Notes: generated by a model not told the origin, from the letters alone. 38,741 nucleotides of DNA from an uncultured Deferribacteres bacterium (GCA_964014485.1 CAXHAT010000063.1:1-38741), one strand, 5' to 3'. Shown: positions 19,771-27,063, numbered from the stretch's first letter. Made by a program: numbers and translations.

Positions 19771-21630
19771 CTAAGCAGTCGCTTTTTCCATGATCTCCGT
19801 CATCCGCTGTACGAAGTCTGACGGCGAGGCCAAACTTCCTTCAATCAAAGACGCGCCTTCATACAATTGAACAATGCAATTTCGCAAAACCGGATCCGTG
19901 CTGTCGGCGATGTTTAGGCGCGACAAATTGCGAACAAGCGGGTGAGACGTGTTGATCTCGAGAATTTTTTTCGCGCCCGCATAATCCTTGTTCATCATTT
20001 TCATCATCTTTTCCATTTGCGGATCAACGCCGTCTTTGCTGACAACCAAAGTCGCCGCCGAATCCACCAAACGTTTCGATTCGACCACGTCTTCAACCTT
20101 ATCGCCAAGCGCATCCTTGAAAACGGCAATTAACGAACTGCTCAAGTCCTGGTTCAGCGCTTCCTCGTCAGGCTTCTCGTCTTTTTTCAAATCGATGTCT
20201 GCCTGCTCGATTGACTTCAGTTTTTTCTTGTCATATTCTCCGACTTGCGGCAGCGTAAAAACATCCACAGGCTCAGTCAAAAGGAGCACTTCAATTTCGT
20301 TCTTGCGAAAATATTCAAGGTTTGGGTTGCGTTGAATTGTCTCCTTCGCTTCTCCCGTCAGGTAATAAATCTCTTCCTGCTCTTCACTCATCCGCCCAAC
20401 ATAGTCTTTGAACGATGCAAGTTCGTCTTTTTCCGTCTTCGTCGTTTCAAAGCGGATGAGTTCGATCACTTTGTCACGATTGGAAAAGTCTGAACTCACG
20501 CCAGTGATAAAAAGCGGACCGAAATTTTTGTAAAAAGTTTTGAATTTTTCCGGTTCCTTTTTGTTCATCTCTTCCAACCAGCCTAAAACCTTACCTGTCA
20601 AAACGTTGCGGATTTTGACCATCACCGGGCTGTTTTGCGTGACTTCCCGCGAAACATTGAGCGGCAAATCGGAAGTATCGACCACGCCTTTGATGAAGCG
20701 TAAATATTCCGGCAGCAAGTCCTTACAATCGTCCTGAATAAAGATTTTGTTCGAATAAAGATGGATCGATTTGTCCGTTTCTTCCTTCATAAACAAATTC
20801 GCGGGCGCATTTTTCGGGATAAACAAAAGCGCTTTGAATTCGACGACGCCTTCGATGGACAATGCAAGATGGTCAAGCGGCGGCTCGAAATCAGTTGAAA
20901 TAAATTTGTAGAATTCCGTGAGCTCTTCTTCGCTCTGGTCATCTTTCGATTTCTGCCACAAAGCGCTCACGACGTTGATTTTCTCATCACCGACAAAAAT
21001 CGGAAAATCGACAAAGTTCGAGTATTTCTTGATGGTGTTTTTAACCTGCCATTCGTCGGAAAAACCCTTGTGATCGTCCTTCAATTTGAAAGTGATTTTC
21101 GTGCCGCGCGTTTCTTTCTCAATTTCTTCAATCGTGAAAGTGCCCTCACCTTTCGATTTCCAGCGATAGCCCTGCGAATCGGTGTCCGCATGGCGCGTTT
21201 CGACGACGATTTCATCGGTTACCATAAACGCGGAGTAGAACCCAACGCCGAACTGACCAATCATGCTGGCGTCGAACTCTTTATCTTCTTTTTGCATTTG
21301 CTCGATAAACTGCATGGTGCCAGAGCTGGCCACGCTGCCGATGCGCTTGACCAGGTCGTCTTTTGTCATCCCCACGCCCGCGTCTTCGATAGAAAATGTC
21401 TGGTTGTCTTTATCCAATTCAATTTTTACTTGCAGTTCAGCGTCCGGAGAAACGACATCGCGATCCGTCAGCATTCTGAAGCGCACTTTATTGAGCGCAT
21501 CCGAGGCGTTTGAAATCAATTCGCGCAGAAAAACTTCAGGGTGTGTGTAAAGCGAATGCACGATGAGATGGAGCAATTGCTTCATCTCCGCTTTGTACTT
21601 GTAACGACTAACTTTGCTTTTCTCAGCCAT
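19771..21630 (-). CDS. htpG: Chaperone HtpG (Hsp90)
   Basis: FLRELISNASDA, IGQFGVGFYSAF, LPLNVSRE, LEINTSHPL. Confidence 0.97.
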   Translation of the reverse strand: MAEKSKVSRYKYKAEMKQLLHLIVHSLYTHPEVFLRELISNASDALNKVRFRMLTDRDVVSPDAELQVKIELDKDNQTFSIEDAGVGMTKDDLVKRIGSVASSGTMQFIEQMQKEDKEFDASMIGQFGVGFYSAFMVTDEIVVETRHADTDSQGYRWKSKGEGTFTIEEIEKETRGTKITFKLKDDHKGFSDEWQVKNTIKKYSNFVDFPIFVGDEKINVVSALWQKSKDDQSEEELTEFYKFISTDFEPPLDHLALSIEGVVEFKALLFIPKNAPANLFMKEETDKSIHLYSNKIFIQDDCKDLLPEYLRFIKGVVDTSDLPLNVSREVTQNSPVMVKIRNVLTGKVLGWLEEMNKKEPEKFKTFYKNFGPLFITGVSSDFSNRDKVIELIRFETTKTEKDELASFKDYVGRMSEEQEEIYYLTGEAKETIQRNPNLEYFRKNEIEVLLLTEPVDVFTLPQVGEYDKKKLKSIEQADIDLKKDEKPDEEALNQDLSSSLIAVFKDALGDKVEDVVESKRLVDSAATLVVSKDGVDPQMEKMMKMMNKDYAGAKKILEINTSHPLVRNLSRLNIADSTDPVLRNCIVQLYEGASLIEGSLASPSDFVQRMTEIMEKATA

Positions 21631-21917
21631 GTCTAAAATCTCCTGTGACCTATTTTCTCAATATGTAATGAAAACGTGGGGTTATTTTTTAGAACGTTGA
21701 AATACGATGCAGCGAATCTACGACAATATAGTGTTCCACTGTTCTCTGCTTCCGCATAAAACGGATGATGCGATATTCTCTAAATTTTTGTTTTGAGTCA
21801 ATTCGCCGTCATCGCCGGCGCTAAAGGTTGGTTTGAACAGCGTAGAATATAAGTGAAGACAGGCTAAAAAAGCAAGTTCGTCTTTAAAAGTTGGCAGGAA
21901 AATGCTTCCGCTCTAAA

Positions 21918-22341
21918 TCAGATGACTTCTAAGCCGGCCTCGATGAAGAATTTTTTCAGCAAGCTGTCGAAAGTAGAATACATGCATTCTTTTTCTTGCA
22001 ATGATAAAGCAGAAGCAAGTTGTAAGGAATCGAGACTGCGCAAACCATCCTGACCATATCTCATCAAAAGTCTGGTCGCAGATTCGATGATTTCTCTATC
22101 AATTTCTATCCAAAGAAAATGATGAGCATCATGCTCAAAATAACTGATTGCCGCTGTAGCCGCTTCTGGAGTTAGTTCATTCGTTCGAACTTTTTTCCAA
22201 ATTGCCGATCTCATCTCAAGTTGAGCAATTTGAGAAGCATAAATGGCCGCAACATTCTTTGAGATCAGATTTTGAACTTCTTCGGTTCCCGGCTCTTCGT
22301 GATAGAGTTTAAGCAAAGACGAAGTATCCAGAAACGATCAC
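21918..22341 (-). pseudogene. VapC-like PIN-domain toxin with out-of-frame start
   Basis: In-frame FLDTSSLLKLY, LEMRSA, LRSLDSLQLASA, TFD; the GTG at 22341 (GGAG RBS, overlapping the antitoxin stop) is out of frame; first in-frame start TTG 22316 lies after the first Asp. Confidence 0.65.
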
Positions 22342-22568
22342 AAGCTGGCTCTCCGTTCTTCAATAAGTGTATCACTGAGTGCGCTCTGCAAGCCTTTTAG
22401 AGCCTGGCGAGATTGCTGAAATGAGAATTGGCTAATATCTAAGCCGTCTCTATTGGATAAGCGGCTTTCTTCAAGAAAAGTAACAACGACCTTAAGAGGG
22501 TGAGAAATGTTGATTTTTTCGTCGAGAATAATCTGGCCGTCTTTGTAAACGCCTGTGACTGCTAACAT
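22338..22568 (-). CDS. Putative antitoxin (AF2212/DUF104-like)
   Basis: 76 aa, MLAVTGVYKDGQI..VVVTFLE, SDTLIEER; GGAGG RBS; directly upstream of the PIN gene. Confidence 0.75.
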   Translation of the reverse strand: MLAVTGVYKDGQIILDEKINISHPLKVVVTFLEESRLSNRDGLDISQFSFQQSRQALKGLQSALSDTLIEERRASL

Positions 22569-22964
22569 AAAATTTCCTCCGCTTTCTTGACATTCAAATT
22601 AGGTCGCATTGTTTCAAAACGCAACGAAATATTGCAAGAGTATCTTGACTTTCGCAAAACTTTAGTTGTGTCTGGGTGAATAAGCGAGGAAATGTTTGGC
22701 TAAATCCGGTTAGAATCACCGTTGCTTCCTCTGAAAACGAAGCCGGTGCAGGCTTCTCGAGCATTTGGCCTTTAGGAAAACTCGGTTGCGAACATCGACG
22801 CCAAATTTGAGCCATCCAACCAAGCGGCAAGAGTGCAACTCTTGCTTTGGATGTTTGTGGTATGAGTACAAAAACCGGAAAACGATTCTGTCAACTTCGG
22901 GCTAAGGAGAAAGCTCGCAAAAATCCAATCATCGTTTGCACGCTTCCTCGCTTTTTGTGTAGAA

Positions 22965-25175
22965 TTACTGCCCCGGAAACCATGCGCCGGGCGAAGTTTC
23001 GTGGAGTTTTTTGAGATCGAGGGGCTTGCCGTTGAGGTAGACGCCGCTAATTCGATGATAGGCGCGCACGTCTTTTGTCGGATCGCCGTCAAGGACGACG
23101 ACGTCCGCGAGCGCATTTGATGCAAGGCGGCCAAGATTGTCTTTTCCCAAGCTCAAAGCGGCGAGGCTGGTCGCGCTGATGAGCGCTTCTTCCGGGTGCA
23201 TTCCGGCTTTGCTGACCAACAGCTCAAGCTCGCGAATCAAGCCGGGGCCGTGAAATGTCGCCGCGTTGCCTGCATCGCTGCCGGCCACGATTTTGACGCC
23301 GCCGTCAATAGCGCGTTTTGTCGCGGCAATCGCGTTTGCCAGGCGATTTTCGAAAGATTTGACCGCGAATGGATTCTTTCTTAAATTCGCCAACCATGAT
23401 TGGGGCGAGCTGATGGACGCGAGCACTTCTTTTTTGACGAGACCGGCGTACTGCACTTCATTAAGTTTTTCACTAACGAGTGCATTCAAATAGCCTTCAT
23501 AAACGGCCAGCGTCGGCGTAATCGTCACGCCTTTTTCGACCATCAGTGCTATCGTTTCTTCGCTCAAATCCTCCGGGATGTGTTGCAAGCCATTAGCGCC
23601 TGCTTGTATGGCAAACTGCGCGCTTTCGTCTGTGTCGACGTGGACGGTTGTGCGCAAACCGGCGCTGCGCGAAGCGACCATTGCGGCGAGAAAGGCTTCT
23701 TTTGAGAGCTTGGGCAGTTTTCCGCCTGCGTTGCCGCCTTCCAACACCAGTTTGATCAAATCAACTTTGTAACCGTCAAGCTCTTCGATAGCTTCTTGCG
23801 CCTCTGCTGCGGTAGAAACCTGCCGTGTTAGTTGCTCGGCTAACCCGGGCAACCCTTGATTAAAACGCGCCGCAGGATGACCGTCCGGCGCCGTGATAGA
23901 CGGCCCGGCGAAAAACATGCGCGGCGCTCGCATCTCTCCTTTTTCCACGGCTTCCCGCAACCGGGAAAGATCGCGATGATTGTCCGTCAACGAAACGACT
24001 GAAGTGACGCCGCAGGCAAGGTATGATTGCAAATCGTGAACCTGGCGGTCTGGCATGTATTCCGCCATCGAAGCGTTGCCGCCCGCAGAACCGCCGATGT
24101 GAATGTGTGAATCGAACAGTCCTGGAATGAGAAATTTGCCGGTGAGCGTATCGACCGTGGCGTTTTCAGGCAACGCGCCGCCGTCTTCCTCGCCGACGGA
24201 CGTAATTTTATTGTCCGAAATAACGACGCGCGCATTTTCAATTCTGCCGCCAAGTCCGTCGAGTACAGTCGCGCCTGTGAGCACACGGACGTGCTTGGGC
24301 GCATCGTTCGAAGCTTGCTCCGAACGACCTGGGCGTTCAGCCATTTTGAAAGCCGGGACGAGCAGCGCCGCGATCAAGTAAACGCCCGCCAAACCGGAAA
24401 GCGCGACGGCGAGATTTTTTTTGTTAACCGGCTGCTCGCTCTCCCAGCGGAAAAGCAGCGAATTAAGAGCAAAGGCAGTGACTCCGGAAACCAAAAGCAC
24501 CGCAATTGGGATCGTTAAATCACCAAGGCTTTCGCCGCGTACAATCACGCCTTGAAATGCATCGACCAAGTAGGTGGCGGGCAGGAACTTGGCCGCCGTC
24601 TGAATATACGGCGGCAACATAAAAAAGGGCACGGCGGCGCCGGAAAGAAACATCATCGGAAAGAAAAGCAGGTTGGAAATCGCCGGAGCGGTTTTCATGT
24701 TTTTCGCCACGGCACCGATGATCAAACCAAGCGGAATAAAGGCGAAAAAGCCGATCAGCGCCATGACAATGAACGTAAGCCAAGCCCCCTTCACCGGCAT
24801 ATCAAACAGCAAAATTGCGCCAATGACTTGCAGTGTGATCGACAAACAAAGGTTAAATAAGGCCACCGCCGCATGTGCGGTGACAACCACCGTCGGGCTG
24901 ACAGGCGTCACGCGGTAGCGCCGAAAAACGCCGCTTTCCCGCTGCGTCACCATCTGCATGGCCACGCCAAAAAACGAGGCTGAAATGACAGTGATAACCA
25001 GCAGCCCCGGGACGACAATCGCCACGCGCGGCCCTTCGCCGCGACCAAAAATGTAACCGAAAACCAGTAAAAAAAGCATGGGAAAGGCCAGGTTCCAAAA
25101 TAACGCCGTCTTTGACCGCATCGTCATTTTCAAATAAGCCGCTGATAAAGCCCCCAAGCCGCGAAATGTATTCAT
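22965..25175 (-). CDS. ABC-2 type permease fused to a metal-dependent amidohydrolase
   Basis: Six TMs with RESGVFRRYRVTP and FLSG..P ending FRWE, a 7th TM, then PGLFDSHIH, GVTSV, IKL, TVH, QH, GSDAG, ADVVVLDGDP; start at ATG 25175 (AGGAG RBS). Confidence 0.88.
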   Translation of the reverse strand: MNTFRGLGALSAAYLKMTMRSKTALFWNLAFPMLFLLVFGYIFGRGEGPRVAIVVPGLLVITVISASFFGVAMQMVTQRESGVFRRYRVTPVSPTVVVTAHAAVALFNLCLSITLQVIGAILLFDMPVKGAWLTFIVMALIGFFAFIPLGLIIGAVAKNMKTAPAISNLLFFPMMFLSGAAVPFFMLPPYIQTAAKFLPATYLVDAFQGVIVRGESLGDLTIPIAVLLVSGVTAFALNSLLFRWESEQPVNKKNLAVALSGLAGVYLIAALLVPAFKMAERPGRSEQASNDAPKHVRVLTGATVLDGLGGRIENARVVISDNKITSVGEEDGGALPENATVDTLTGKFLIPGLFDSHIHIGGSAGGNASMAEYMPDRQVHDLQSYLACGVTSVVSLTDNHRDLSRLREAVEKGEMRAPRMFFAGPSITAPDGHPAARFNQGLPGLAEQLTRQVSTAAEAQEAIEELDGYKVDLIKLVLEGGNAGGKLPKLSKEAFLAAMVASRSAGLRTTVHVDTDESAQFAIQAGANGLQHIPEDLSEETIALMVEKGVTITPTLAVYEGYLNALVSEKLNEVQYAGLVKKEVLASISSPQSWLANLRKNPFAVKSFENRLANAIAATKRAIDGGVKIVAGSDAGNAATFHGPGLIRELELLVSKAGMHPEEALISATSLAALSLGKDNLGRLASNALADVVVLDGDPTKDVRAYHRISGVYLNGKPLDLKKLHETSPGAWFPGQ

Positions 25176-25230
25176 TGATTTGATTCTCCTCTTTTTCAGT
25201 GATAAGTGATTAGTAAATACTAAATAGTCA

Positions 25231-26142
25231 TCACTGATTACTACCCACATCCCCTACAAGCTCTAAATAAACGTCTTCCAGAGTCGGCCTTTTCAGACGC
25301 AAGTCCGTCAGCGTAACATTCTGCGTTTTCAATGTCTCGCCTAACGCAATGACTGCTTCGGCAGGGGACGTTGTGCTGAATTTATAATGTCCGCCTTCGC
25401 GACCTTGCGGCTCGAGTCCGGATTGCACCAGCGCCGTCGGATCGAACTCGCCTTCTACGTCGATCCAAAGCGTGGAAGCGCCGCCTGAGCGTCCCAAAAG
25501 TTCAAACGGCGTTCCGTCAGCGACGATCTGTCCAGCCTTAATCATGATAACGCGGTCGCACAATTTCTCCGCTTCTTCGATGTAATGCGTCGTGAGCAAA
25601 ACGGTGCGTCCTTGCTCGCGGAAGCCTGAGACGATTTTATGAACGCCCCGCCGCGCAACAGGATCGAGACCCGTCGTCGGCTCGTCAAGAATAATCAATT
25701 CAGGATCATTTATCAGAGCCAGTCCGATGGCCAAGCGCTGCTTTTGCCCGCCGGACAAGCTGTCTACGCGAGCGTCGGCTTTTTCTTCCAGCGTCACGCG
25801 TGACAGCGCTTCCTCGGGAGCAACGGACTTTTCGAAGAATGCGCTGTATGTGCTTAACACTTCCGTCGCGGTCAATTCGGGCGGCAGTTCGGTGTGTTGC
25901 AGCAAAACGCCTAATTTTTCTTTAAGCGCCTTCGCTTGTTTGGCGGGATCAAGCCCGAGCACGTTTAAACGCCCCGCGGACGGATCGCGCAGGCCTTCTA
26001 TCGTTTCGACAAGCGTGGTTTTTCCGGCTCCGTTCGGGCCGAGCAGCCCAACAACGCCGCCCCCGGCAATATTGAGATCAACGCCGCGAAGTGCGTGAAC
26101 GTCGCCGTAGTTTTTTTTCAGATTTTCCGTTTGGATAACCAT
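25231..26142 (-). CDS. ABC-2 exporter ATP-binding subunit
   Basis: GPNGAGKTT, LSGGQKQR, LDEPTTGLD, TTHYIEEA, C-terminal PTLEDVYL. Confidence 0.95.
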   Translation of the reverse strand: MVIQTENLKKNYGDVHALRGVDLNIAGGGVVGLLGPNGAGKTTLVETIEGLRDPSAGRLNVLGLDPAKQAKALKEKLGVLLQHTELPPELTATEVLSTYSAFFEKSVAPEEALSRVTLEEKADARVDSLSGGQKQRLAIGLALINDPELIILDEPTTGLDPVARRGVHKIVSGFREQGRTVLLTTHYIEEAEKLCDRVIMIKAGQIVADGTPFELLGRSGGASTLWIDVEGEFDPTALVQSGLEPQGREGGHYKFSTTSPAEAVIALGETLKTQNVTLTDLRLKRPTLEDVYLELVGDVGSNQ

Positions 26143-26282
26143 GTGTATTCCTGGATTCGTGAGTTGCGTCTTGTTGGCGGGAAAAGTACGGCGGGCGCCC
26201 CCGAAAGCAACGTCGTTTCAGACAAACAACGGCAAGCGCGGACAAAAAACAGAATTTGTACGACGAGATTCGGACGGTACGT

Positions 26283-26489
26283 TTATTCCGGGAGGCGCTT
26301 GTTGAACAATCTTGTTAGGTCAACGCCGAAATAACGCAGGCACATCAAAAGCAGGGTTGCAGCTCCCGCTTCGTCGAGGTTGCCGACCAAGGGAATGTTG
26401 TCAGGAATCAATTCGATGACCCCGACCCCGATATTCAGAAGGTAGAGAATGGAGATTATGGCGAGACAAAAAACGATGAATCCCTTCAT
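26283..26489 (-). CDS. DUF1232 (YkvA-like) small membrane protein
   Basis: ELIPDNIPLVGNLDE motif between hydrophobic segments. Confidence 0.8.
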   Translation of the reverse strand: MKGFIVFCLAIISILYLLNIGVGVIELIPDNIPLVGNLDEAGAATLLLMCLRYFGVDLTRLFNKRLPE

Positions 26490-26526
26490 GATTCAAAACT
26501 TGGCTTTGGCGTCGTTTGAGGGCTTT

Positions 26527-27063
26527 TCAATCATCTAATGCGTTTAACTCATCTTCCAAACGCTTGGCGTACGGCGACTCAGAGACGTTTTTATCAGAAA
26601 CGTTTTTTTGCGGCGTCGCGGCGACTGCAGCGGCGCGTCTGCGGCTGTTGATGAACATCGACGCGGCGAGTATTCCGGCAAACAAAATGATAAAAGGCAG
26701 CACCCACAGCAAAATATTCAATCCTTTGGCTTCCGGTCGGGACAAGATTCGCTCGCCGTAAACTTCGGCGAACCCCGCAAGAATTTCATCATCGCTGAAT
26801 CCCCCGGCTATGCCGATTTTGATCTGATCCTTGACTTGGTGCGCCGCCCCGGATTGATCTTCGTAAGCCGTTTTCGAATAGCAGCACGGGGCCATGAGCA
26901 ACTGCGACAAATCGCGCGCTCGCACCTGCTGCTCGGGCTCGAGGTGAACGCCTTCGGTTTCGTCGTGGCTGTGCTCGGTCGAAGGGACAAACTTCTTTTC
27001 TTGCGCCAAAGCTTGCGCGGCGAACAGCAGCAAGACCGCGAAAGAAAGAAGCGTTTTACTCAT
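26527..27063 (-). CDS. Cytochrome c biogenesis CcmH/NrfF-like protein
   Basis: Signal peptide, LMAPCC, YGERILSRP, LLWVLP TM helix; start may be ATG 27063 or 27072. Confidence 0.8.
   Translation of the reverse strand: MSKTLLSFAVLLLFAAQALAQEKKFVPSTEHSHDETEGVHLEPEQQVRARDLSQLLMAPCCYSKTAYEDQSGAAHQVKDQIKIGIAGGFSDDEILAGFAEVYGERILSRPEAKGLNILLWVLPFIILFAGILAASMFINSRRRAAAVAATPQKNVSDKNVSESPYAKRLEDELNALDD

Follow-up and report, generated by a model that had tools for sequence, protein, structure and literature searches.

The 38,741-nucleotide stretch of DNA analysed here (the window; GCA_964014485.1, CAXHAT010000063.1:1-38741, from an uncultured Deferribacteres bacterium) carries on its minus strand, at positions 22965-26142, two co-directional genes: that of an ATP-binding cassette (ABC) transporter ATPase and, following it, one that joins an ABC-2 exporter permease to an amidohydrolase through a seventh transmembrane (TM) helix (Table 1). 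The open frame of the fused gene is unbroken over 761 codons (22965..25250, minus strand). Because an AGGAG Shine-Dalgarno sequence, read from the DNA, lies 10 nt 5' of the ATG at 25175 and every homologue begins at the position equivalent to the MxxxRGL of that start, we assign the gene to 22965..25175, encoding 736 amino acids (aa); the 761-aa start at 25250 was dropped. A preliminary description of this DNA had reported the fused open reading frame (ORF), with the ATPase gene directly upstream. Both are confirmed here, the latter by its ORF and by Pfam ABC_tran; the start codon of the fused gene, however, had been set too early. The protein differs from its database cluster representative (P0001) at a single position, L674V.

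Architecture of the fused protein

The first part of the protein is matched by two Pfam families, ABC2_membrane (PF01061) at residues 34-235 (761-aa numbering; 90.3 bits, cut-off 26.9) and ABC2_membrane_3 (76.8 bits, cut-off 31.6). As whole-chain Foldseek searches were saturated by amidohydrolase matches, the permease part was folded separately. The AlphaFold2 model of residues 1-295 alone, built from an alignment with 39 homologues lacking the enzyme (short forms, described below), has a predicted local distance difference test score (pLDDT) of 95.4 and a predicted template modelling score (pTM) of 0.91, and its fold matches are KpsM (8tsh_C; target template modelling score, TMt, 0.70), insect ABCH-9C, Wzm, TarG, NosY and ABCG proteins. 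Relatives among type V exporters were also found at the sequence level, and the model identifies the permease as having the six-helix type V ABC exporter fold. KpsMT, Wzm-Wzt, TarGH, ABCG, ABCH-9C and DrrAB share this six-helix core, an interface helix and external helices between TM5 and TM6, with the nucleotide-binding domain either separate or fused. ABC-2 permeases usually end in the cytoplasm after TM6, and the matched solved bacterial permeases, at 246-270 residues, have no room for a seventh helix and an enzyme; in the window protein a helix and a 440-residue domain follow TM6, which makes it a variant of the ABC-2 architecture.

The seventh helix (residues 255-276, LAVALSGLAGVYLIAALLVPAF) has a hydropathy peak of 2.42, is found at residues 252-272 in both AlphaFold2 models (the whole chain and residues 1-295), and is hydrophobic by eye and 21-22 residues long in all of 50 fused homologues. 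The FRWE motif that closes the permease is invariant in the same 50 proteins and in the 40 rows of the short-form alignment. Pfam, hydropathy and the models agree on a complete six-helix permease ending at FRWE and continued, in one ORF, by an extra hydrophobic helix, as had been described. Only ABC-2 families were found by Pfam in the membrane part, with no FtsX/MacB permease domain, and neither C39 nor PF00144 (the beta-lactamase superfamily) has a Pfam match in the fused protein.

The best NCBIfam matches of the ATPase are DrrA and NodI, both under the curated cut-offs (drrA, of the TIGR01188/TIGR01247 DrrAB set: 235.2 bits against 312.45). The permease also scores below the cut-off for drrB (52.4 bits against 223.05), which leaves the pair outside the DrrAB subfamily as curated. 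Wherever the sequence of a close fused or short-form locus extends far enough, an orthologue of the ATPase (52-66% identity) stands before the permease.

On the same chain, Pfam Amidohydro_1 occupies residues 373-742 (761-aa numbering; 94.7 bits, cut-off 25). A Protein Data Bank (PDB) sequence search matched 3mtw (Cc2672; E 1.5e-28), as did Foldseek for the enzyme part (TMt 0.85). Identity to solved relatives is 22-26%; further fold matches are ADH3, the Sgx prolidases/carboxypeptidases and ochratoxinase, with molinate and phenylurea hydrolases more distant, and fold and sequence searches agree, the best solved relatives being Cc2672, ADH3, the Sgx prolidases and ochratoxinase. H357/H359, K475, H512, H532 and D634 align one-to-one with the metal ligands of Cc2672. 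Both histidines of the HxH pair are kept in 50/50 fused homologues and each of the other four residues in 49/50, in agreement with the full HxH, K, H, H and D set noted in the preliminary description. By these alignments the enzyme is a member of the amidohydrolase superfamily, binuclear subtype I, in the COG1228 clade, with an intact active site and predicted activity. Cc2672, Sgx9260/9359/9355, ochratoxinase and ADH3 share its fold and its HxH/K/H/H/D centre; the solved COG1228 enzymes, however, are soluble and several are octameric (8 chains per entry), whereas that of the window is tethered to a permease.

The linker between helix 7 and the enzyme measures 17-41 aa (median 20) in the 50 fused homologues, has a mean net charge of +0.8 after TM7 and is, by eye, rich in Pro, Ala, Ser, Gly or Gln in several of them. 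The AlphaFold2 model of the whole chain (50-row alignment) has a mean pLDDT of 93.3 and a pTM of 0.65, and its pLDDT falls below 50 at residues 284-291 only.

Table 1 Features of the two-gene locus (positions in the window; residues in 736-aa numbering)
Feature	Position	Strand	Basis
ABC transporter ATP-binding subunit, 303 aa, DrrA/NodI-like	25231..26142	-	Pfam ABC_tran, 111.6 bits
Shine-Dalgarno AGGAG	25186..25190	-	read from sequence
Fused gene: permease, helix 7, linker, amidohydrolase; 736 aa + stop	22965..25175	-	ORF, Pfam, homologues
ABC-2/type V permease core, residues 1-245: interface helix, TM1-TM6, ends FRWE	24441..25175	-	
FRWE motif, residues 242-245, in TM6-TM7 loop assigned to cytoplasm	24441..24452	-	
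Seventh transmembrane helix, residues 255-276	24348..24413	-	hydropathy, models, homologues
Post-TM7 segment: conserved PAF(K/R)M..P motif, then variable linker	24291..24347	-	
Amidohydrolase domain, residues 296-736, COG1228/Cc2672-like, predicted periplasmic	22968..24290	-	
HxH metal ligands H357 + H359	24099..24107	-	Cc2672 alignment
K475, predicted carboxylated bridging lysine	23751..23753	-	aligned to lysine in Cc2672 'viKicatGG'
H512 metal ligand	23640..23642	-	Cc2672 alignment
H532 metal ligand	23580..23582	-	Cc2672 alignment
D634 metal ligand / general base	23274..23276	-	Cc2672 alignment

Membrane topology and distribution of the fusion

In type V exporters both ends of the six-helix core are taken as cytoplasmic. 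Across the 50 fused homologues, an average of 12.7 Lys and Arg residues (minimum 10) is found in the presumed cytoplasmic loops, namely the N-terminus, TM2-3, TM4-5 and the FRWE loop, against 4.9 (maximum 8) in the presumed periplasmic ones. Stand-alone relatives of the enzyme were collected from 80 loci, found via generic amidohydrolase motifs on genome contigs and mostly containing stand-alone enzymes; 75 remained once 3 truncated at contig ends and the 2 split operons had been removed. A crude hydropathy rule places a hydrophobic N-terminal segment before the domain in 61 of these, many of which look, by eye, like classical signal peptides or lipoboxes, and finds none in the other 14, one of which has a Tat-like RRDFI motif. 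Given the type V fold of the core, the Lys and Arg content of the loops, the hydrophobic seventh helix and the signals on stand-alone relatives, the enzyme domain very probably lies on the periplasmic side of the membrane. The preliminary description had proposed this placement by helix 7 and held that a cytoplasmic hydrolase would overturn it; fold class, loop charge and stand-alone signals favour the proposal, and nothing in them points to a cytoplasmic enzyme.

The fusion is well represented in databases. When proteins of 418-1332 aa were searched, 363 matched, and the best 120 are all two-domain proteins of 715-768 aa. Residues 1-290, the permease part, matched 228 clusters (404-1288 aa) at E<=1e-50; an amidohydrolase Pfam domain is present in 116 of the 120 listed, and the other four (435-468 aa) have ABC-2 domains only. 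Some matches bear the source names candidate division KSB1, Thermoanaerobaculia, Vicinamibacteria/Vicinamibacterales and Acidobacteria, and the fusion is widespread among Acidobacteriota and among KSB1-like bacteria of soils and sediments. Database names are automatic only ('amidohydrolase family protein', 'imidazolonepropionase-like amidohydrolase/ABC-type multidrug transport system permease'). Misassembly or chance loss of a stop codon was considered and rejected, since orthologues at 46-61% identity are single uninterrupted genes; homologues that always came as two genes would have spoken for such an accident, and they are mostly one gene.

In the phylum of the window, 4 of 167 genomes match at E<=1e-60, all from one family. 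Identity to the nearest homologues, some of them named Acidobacteriota, is about 50%. The guanine-plus-cytosine (GC) content of the module is 0.53-0.555 (23001-26000), against 0.43-0.45 in the left flank (20001-23000) and 0.50-0.52 in the right. Together, the GC content and the identity of these relatives suggest a mobile, self-sufficient two-gene unit, and the GC shift with the patchy distribution in the phylum hints at horizontal acquisition. One fused gene, in the Acidobacteriota genome G335 (L098 / L140:9526-11598), is frameshifted, with residues 4-638 in one frame and 656-734 in another, while the near-identical P0059 is intact at 741 aa; the frameshift is either an assembly error or recent decay.

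Enzyme-less permeases, split operons and the history of the pairing

Forms of the pump that keep helix 7 and have no enzyme are newly seen here. In the window's own family, G001 has a 299-aa orthologue (57% identity) consisting of permease, FRWE and helix 7, which stops 25 residues after the helix and still has the ATPase gene upstream. Among 401 sampled Acidobacteriota genomes, 29 match at E<=1e-60. Two of these hold close fused forms (G419 and the frameshifted G335), two hold distant fused forms of 30-33% identity (G450 and G351), one has a separate, CIA30-extended amidohydrolase beside a different ABC-2 pump (G231), and 24 have short forms. The permeases of these 24 are 41-54% identical and stop right after helix 7 or after a PAFxMxxxPG motif; their ATPases, where in view, are 51-64% identical, one locus showing only the 3' end of the gene. 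Helix 7 is retained in 25 short forms altogether, and in a large protein database 122 short clusters end just after it (E<=1e-50); some of these may be contig-end fragments, and many lie on contigs of 0.1-4 Mb. The role of a mere adaptor for the enzyme, which the preliminary description had implied for helix 7, does not fit these 122 enzyme-less clusters that retain it.

The history of the permease was examined in a quick maximum likelihood tree (LG+G4, with Shimodaira-Hasegawa-like approximate likelihood ratio test, SH-aLRT, support only) of 86 rows, rooted on six ordinary six-helix permeases, one of them from an unpublished genome (G016). Fused rows came from the length-restricted search, and short rows from one phylum sample and G001. 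Fused forms lie at the base of the seven-helix clade, G001 is nested inside a fused clade (supports 96 and 99), and the other 24 short forms fall into one clade that also holds the fused P0059/G335 pair. On this topology the simplest reading is that the fusion is ancestral and that the enzyme was probably lost repeatedly while helix 7 stayed, and the occurrence of the short forms indicates that the pump can function, or at any rate survive, in the absence of the hydrolase.

The short forms have surroundings of their own. In seven cassette loci from Acidobacteriota genomes (L126, L127, L128, L129, L139, L136 and L137), the gene immediately before that of the ATPase codes in every case for a bactofilin-like membrane protein of about 430 aa; this protein also accompanies the fused gene of G335 and is absent from the window and from L133, L134, L131 and L132. 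A LytTR regulator lies upstream in six of the seven, the seventh stretch ending before that position, with a LytS-type kinase upstream of the regulator where the sequence reaches and a SpoIIE phosphatase further upstream in two. Directly downstream of the permease is a large Rce1-like CPBP protease of about 550 aa (5/7), followed by an S51 peptidase (3/7). We read this cassette, which looks uncharacterised, as a peptide- or envelope-response context.

The same components also occur as separate genes. In two gammaproteobacterial metagenome-assembled genomes, of Steroidobacteraceae (L010) and Alteromonadaceae (L059), ATPase, permease and amidohydrolase are three successive genes; such a row was found in only these 2 of the 80 amidohydrolase loci. 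Their permeases, of six helices, terminate in the cytoplasm, and their COG1228 amidohydrolases begin with a membrane helix of their own (GL.A.A.FF.ALP.P). These split operons thus resemble the window module in their ATPase, ABC-2 permease and membrane-anchored COG1228 enzyme, but differ from it in having three genes and an enzyme of another clade. In L010 (8026-9737) a kinase and a response regulator follow the amidohydrolase, read from their translations as HisKA_3-type and NarL/LuxR-type; in G419, too, the fused gene is followed by a HisKA_3 kinase, in that case assigned by Pfam. Another arrangement of enzyme and ABC-2 pump is seen in G231 (L135:4740-8712), where an amidohydrolase 39% identical to the fused domain, with a C-terminal CIA30 domain, is followed by an ABC ATPase and then a 401-aa ABC2_membrane_3 permease.

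When 98 enzyme domains were placed in a tree, those of the main fused group formed a single clade (18/18, support 100); the two distant fused domains fall with the ABC-adjacent enzyme of G231 (support 82), and the split pair falls into another well-supported clade among stand-alone enzymes. To judge from these groupings, enzymes of this clade may have become associated with ABC-2 pumps on more than one occasion, although the unresolved backbone of the tree would also allow a single old origin.

Proposed function and its alternatives

In the mechanism we propose, the two genes would form a self-contained module in which a DrrA-like ATPase powers a type V exporter; by analogy with the solved members of that class, two permeases probably dimerize and are served by two ATPases. 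Helix 7 of each permease chain would carry the C-terminus to the periplasmic side, where a flexible tether of 17-41 residues would hold the binuclear-metal amidohydrolase, predicted to be active. The pump would move an amphipathic amide compound out of the cytoplasm or membrane, a peptide, lipo-amino acid, lipopeptide, amide antibiotic or toxin being candidate cargoes, and the tethered enzyme would then cleave it at the membrane surface. Type V exporters of solved structure handle lipids and lipid-linked polymers. We hold with middling confidence that the module serves to 'expel and hydrolyse' for detoxification, resistance or envelope turnover, rather than to mature a self-made product, because it is autonomous, patchy in distribution and never beside biosynthetic genes, and because sister pumps are accompanied by sensor-regulator pairs and peptidases. 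The preliminary description had spoken of a coupled export-and-hydrolyse machine. Its architecture and topology are supported by the present analysis, while the functional coupling, like the dimeric assembly and the class of substrate, is something we infer.

For the enzyme, the reaction type alone can be deduced from sequence comparison, not the substrate. Excerpts of PMC11342369 describe characterised COG1228 members as carboxypeptidases or amidases that release a C-terminal residue; their substrates are dipeptides and N-acyl amino acids (L-Xaa-L-Arg/Lys, Xaa-hydrophobic and Gly/Ala/N-acyl-Pro) and ochratoxin A.

Several observations weigh against the proposed mechanism. The score of the enzyme against the NCBIfam Xaa-Pro dipeptidase equivalog (NF051886) is 146.5 bits, so far under the cut-off of 500 that specificity cannot be transferred from it. 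The linker is variable and modelled with low confidence, the whole-chain pTM is just 0.65, and there is no sign of a fixed path from channel to active site; coupling may for these reasons be by proximity only. Nor does any neighbour or regulator conserved across the loci examined point to a substrate. In one fused protein (P0079, 760 aa), five of eight checked active-site positions are missing, four of them metal ligands, and it is, by this substitution pattern, probably a pseudo-enzyme; it reads HHFLNNFH where the pattern is otherwise HHKHHDHH, with the whole domain retained. At least three changes between fused and short forms are required by the permease tree; read as losses of the enzyme, and taken with the probably dead enzyme of P0079, they mean that hydrolysis is not essential to the pump. 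Finally, the permease and enzyme trees are both quick LG+G4 searches with SH-aLRT support only.

A first alternative is that the permease does nothing but anchor a periplasmic scavenging carboxypeptidase or dipeptidase, transport and hydrolysis acting on unrelated molecules. The flexible tether, the secretion signals that mark most stand-alone relatives as ordinary secreted enzymes (61/75) and the persistence of the pump in 122 enzyme-less clusters all accord with it. For anchoring, however, one signal peptide or lipobox would suffice, and the relatives use precisely those; the link with ABC-2 pumps, moreover, recurs in the fused clade, in a second, distant fused pair and in split operons, and the fused form has been kept across the 228 permease-matched clusters, with the enzyme in 116 of the 120 listed. 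We consider this explanation unlikely.

The preliminary description had also raised the maturation of a pro-form, in which an exported self-made precursor, a peptide or hybrid natural product, would be activated by removal of a C-terminal 'auxiliary' residue. There is precedent on the side of the enzyme: according to excerpts of PMC5636949, the Cc2672-like zinc amidohydrolases CaeD and ColD remove leucine in caerulomycin/collismycin biosynthesis, acting on a specific small-molecule amide and not on bulk peptides. They are, by the same excerpts, encoded in antibiotic clusters and not fused to a transporter, and that paper contains no membrane or signal-peptide terms. Precedent exists on the side of the transporter as well, since ZmaM-like peptidases are described in excerpts of PMC9889268 as fused to ABC half-transporters. 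Gene context, however, gives maturation no support in any locus examined. No gene for a non-ribosomal peptide synthetase, polyketide synthase, precursor of a ribosomally synthesized and post-translationally modified peptide or other biosynthetic function adjoins the module in the window, L133, L134, L130, L131, L132 or L140, the rest of the genomes not having been searched. Among 30 ORFs chosen across the window, Pfam matched housekeeping families or nothing and no biosynthetic family, in line with the earlier remark that no such cluster is nearby.

The neighbours themselves differ in every lineage examined. They include GH114, STAS, GGDEF and phytase genes in G002/G005, an M14 carboxypeptidase besides the HisKA_3 kinase in G419, a PEP-CTERM protein in G450, and glycosyltransferases with a BlaI/BlaR1-like pair in G335; no neighbour is common to the window, G002/G005, G419, G450, G351 and G335. 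One locus (L138, G210) was left out of this count, its ABC pair not being recovered by simple ORF calling. With these contexts, maturation is decidedly improbable. In G351, the distant fused gene is followed, two genes further downstream, by a run of three more amidohydrolase-family genes (L132:11531-16007).

FtsEX-hydrolase systems offer a precedent for a third explanation, mechanotransmission, in which ATP hydrolysis would switch the periplasmic hydrolase, for example to trim cell-wall peptides, and no substrate would be moved. The permease has the type V fold and not that of FtsX/MacB, a low-confidence tether of 17-41 residues is poorly suited to transmitting force, and the cell-wall genes of the window (SPOR and Amidase_3), about 4-7 kb away, are not among the neighbours of its relatives. 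Although the Cc2672-like Rv0074 is reported, in excerpts of PMC6347829, to cleave peptidoglycan in vitro, we regard this mechanism as very improbable. Scarcely credible is an inverted or cytoplasmic topology, with helix 7 not spanning the membrane or the core flipped and the enzyme cleaving before export like a C39 domain: the 14/75 stand-alone relatives without a signal, which may be cytoplasmic, and the positive linker after TM7 would allow it, but it conflicts with a 21-22-residue hydrophobic helix present in all 50 homologues and both models, with a Lys and Arg distribution that fits N-in, C-out, and with the N-terminal membrane helix that split-operon enzymes carry of their own.

The concept of an exporter fused to a hydrolase has precedents, and it is in pump class, enzyme class, domain order and context that the window fusion differs from them. 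Peptidase-containing ABC transporters (PCATs) unite an ABC exporter and a cargo-processing C39 hydrolase in one polypeptide, the C39 domain being a cytoplasmic, N-terminal cysteine protease and the exporter of another type. They resemble the window fusion in carrying exporter and hydrolase on one chain, and differ in the enzyme, its place and the type of pump. Among the precedents, too, are the ZmaM/EdeA/PamJ-type peptidases, with their unfused relatives ClbP and XcnG: as excerpts of PMC9889268 describe them, a periplasm-facing hydrolase is likewise joined covalently to an ABC exporter, and export and cleavage thereby take place at one place. For the ZmaM type, however, the same excerpts put a PF00144 peptidase on the N-terminal side of an ABC half-transporter and trace its identification to biosynthetic gene clusters, whereas in the window a metallo-amidohydrolase lies C-terminal to an ABC-2 permease, with a separate ATPase gene and no adjoining biosynthetic cluster. 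The absence of a PF00144 domain from the protein, and of a biosynthetic cluster from the window and related loci, places the fusion outside the ClbP/XcnG/ZmaM group.

A full-text literature search found no paper describing an ABC-2 permease-amidohydrolase architecture, which agrees with the earlier statement that no characterised example was known. Nor did it find one on an ABC permease joined to an M1 family aminopeptidase, a candidate parallel suggested by database product names. It is possible, though on balance doubtful, that the window encodes the first enzyme-bearing type V exporter in the full sense: a portable two-gene 'expel-and-destroy' machine that lifts an amphipathic amide (lipo-amino acid, lipopeptide or amide antibiotic) from the membrane and passes it to its own tethered periplasmic metallo-carboxypeptidase, a pairing that may have arisen repeatedly (as a fusion, a second distant fusion and a split operon) and from which the enzyme would have been shed repeatedly, leaving seven-helix 'scar' permeases. 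Such a machine would add a third design of exporter with processing enzyme beside the C39-type transporters and the ZmaM-type activators, and may be a common means, so far overlooked, by which bacteria resist or turn over amide compounds. Occurring fused, split and without the enzyme, the pump constitutes a natural experiment on what the tethered enzyme adds, and the soluble domain is a candidate for substrate screening, its clade having already yielded mycotoxin-degrading enzymes.

The remainder of the window is a housekeeping region, with genes for RNase R, phosphoglucomutase, PrmC, RF-1, Rho, a Mur-ligase-family protein, HtpG and a PIN protein, and further ones for CcmH, cyclophilin, a BamB-like protein, a SPOR protein, MoeA and an Amidase_3 protein. 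A promoter and terminator scan of 22200-26700 gave 1 promoter-like site where 2.6 were expected, and 8 terminator-like sites where the expectation was 7.4. Downstream of the fused gene, at a distance of a few hundred bases, lies a VapBC-like pair (21918-22568, minus strand), composed of a PIN-domain ORF (21918..22316; Pfam PIN, E 1.7e-5) and, before it, a 76-aa ORF (22338..22568) that we read as a putative antitoxin.

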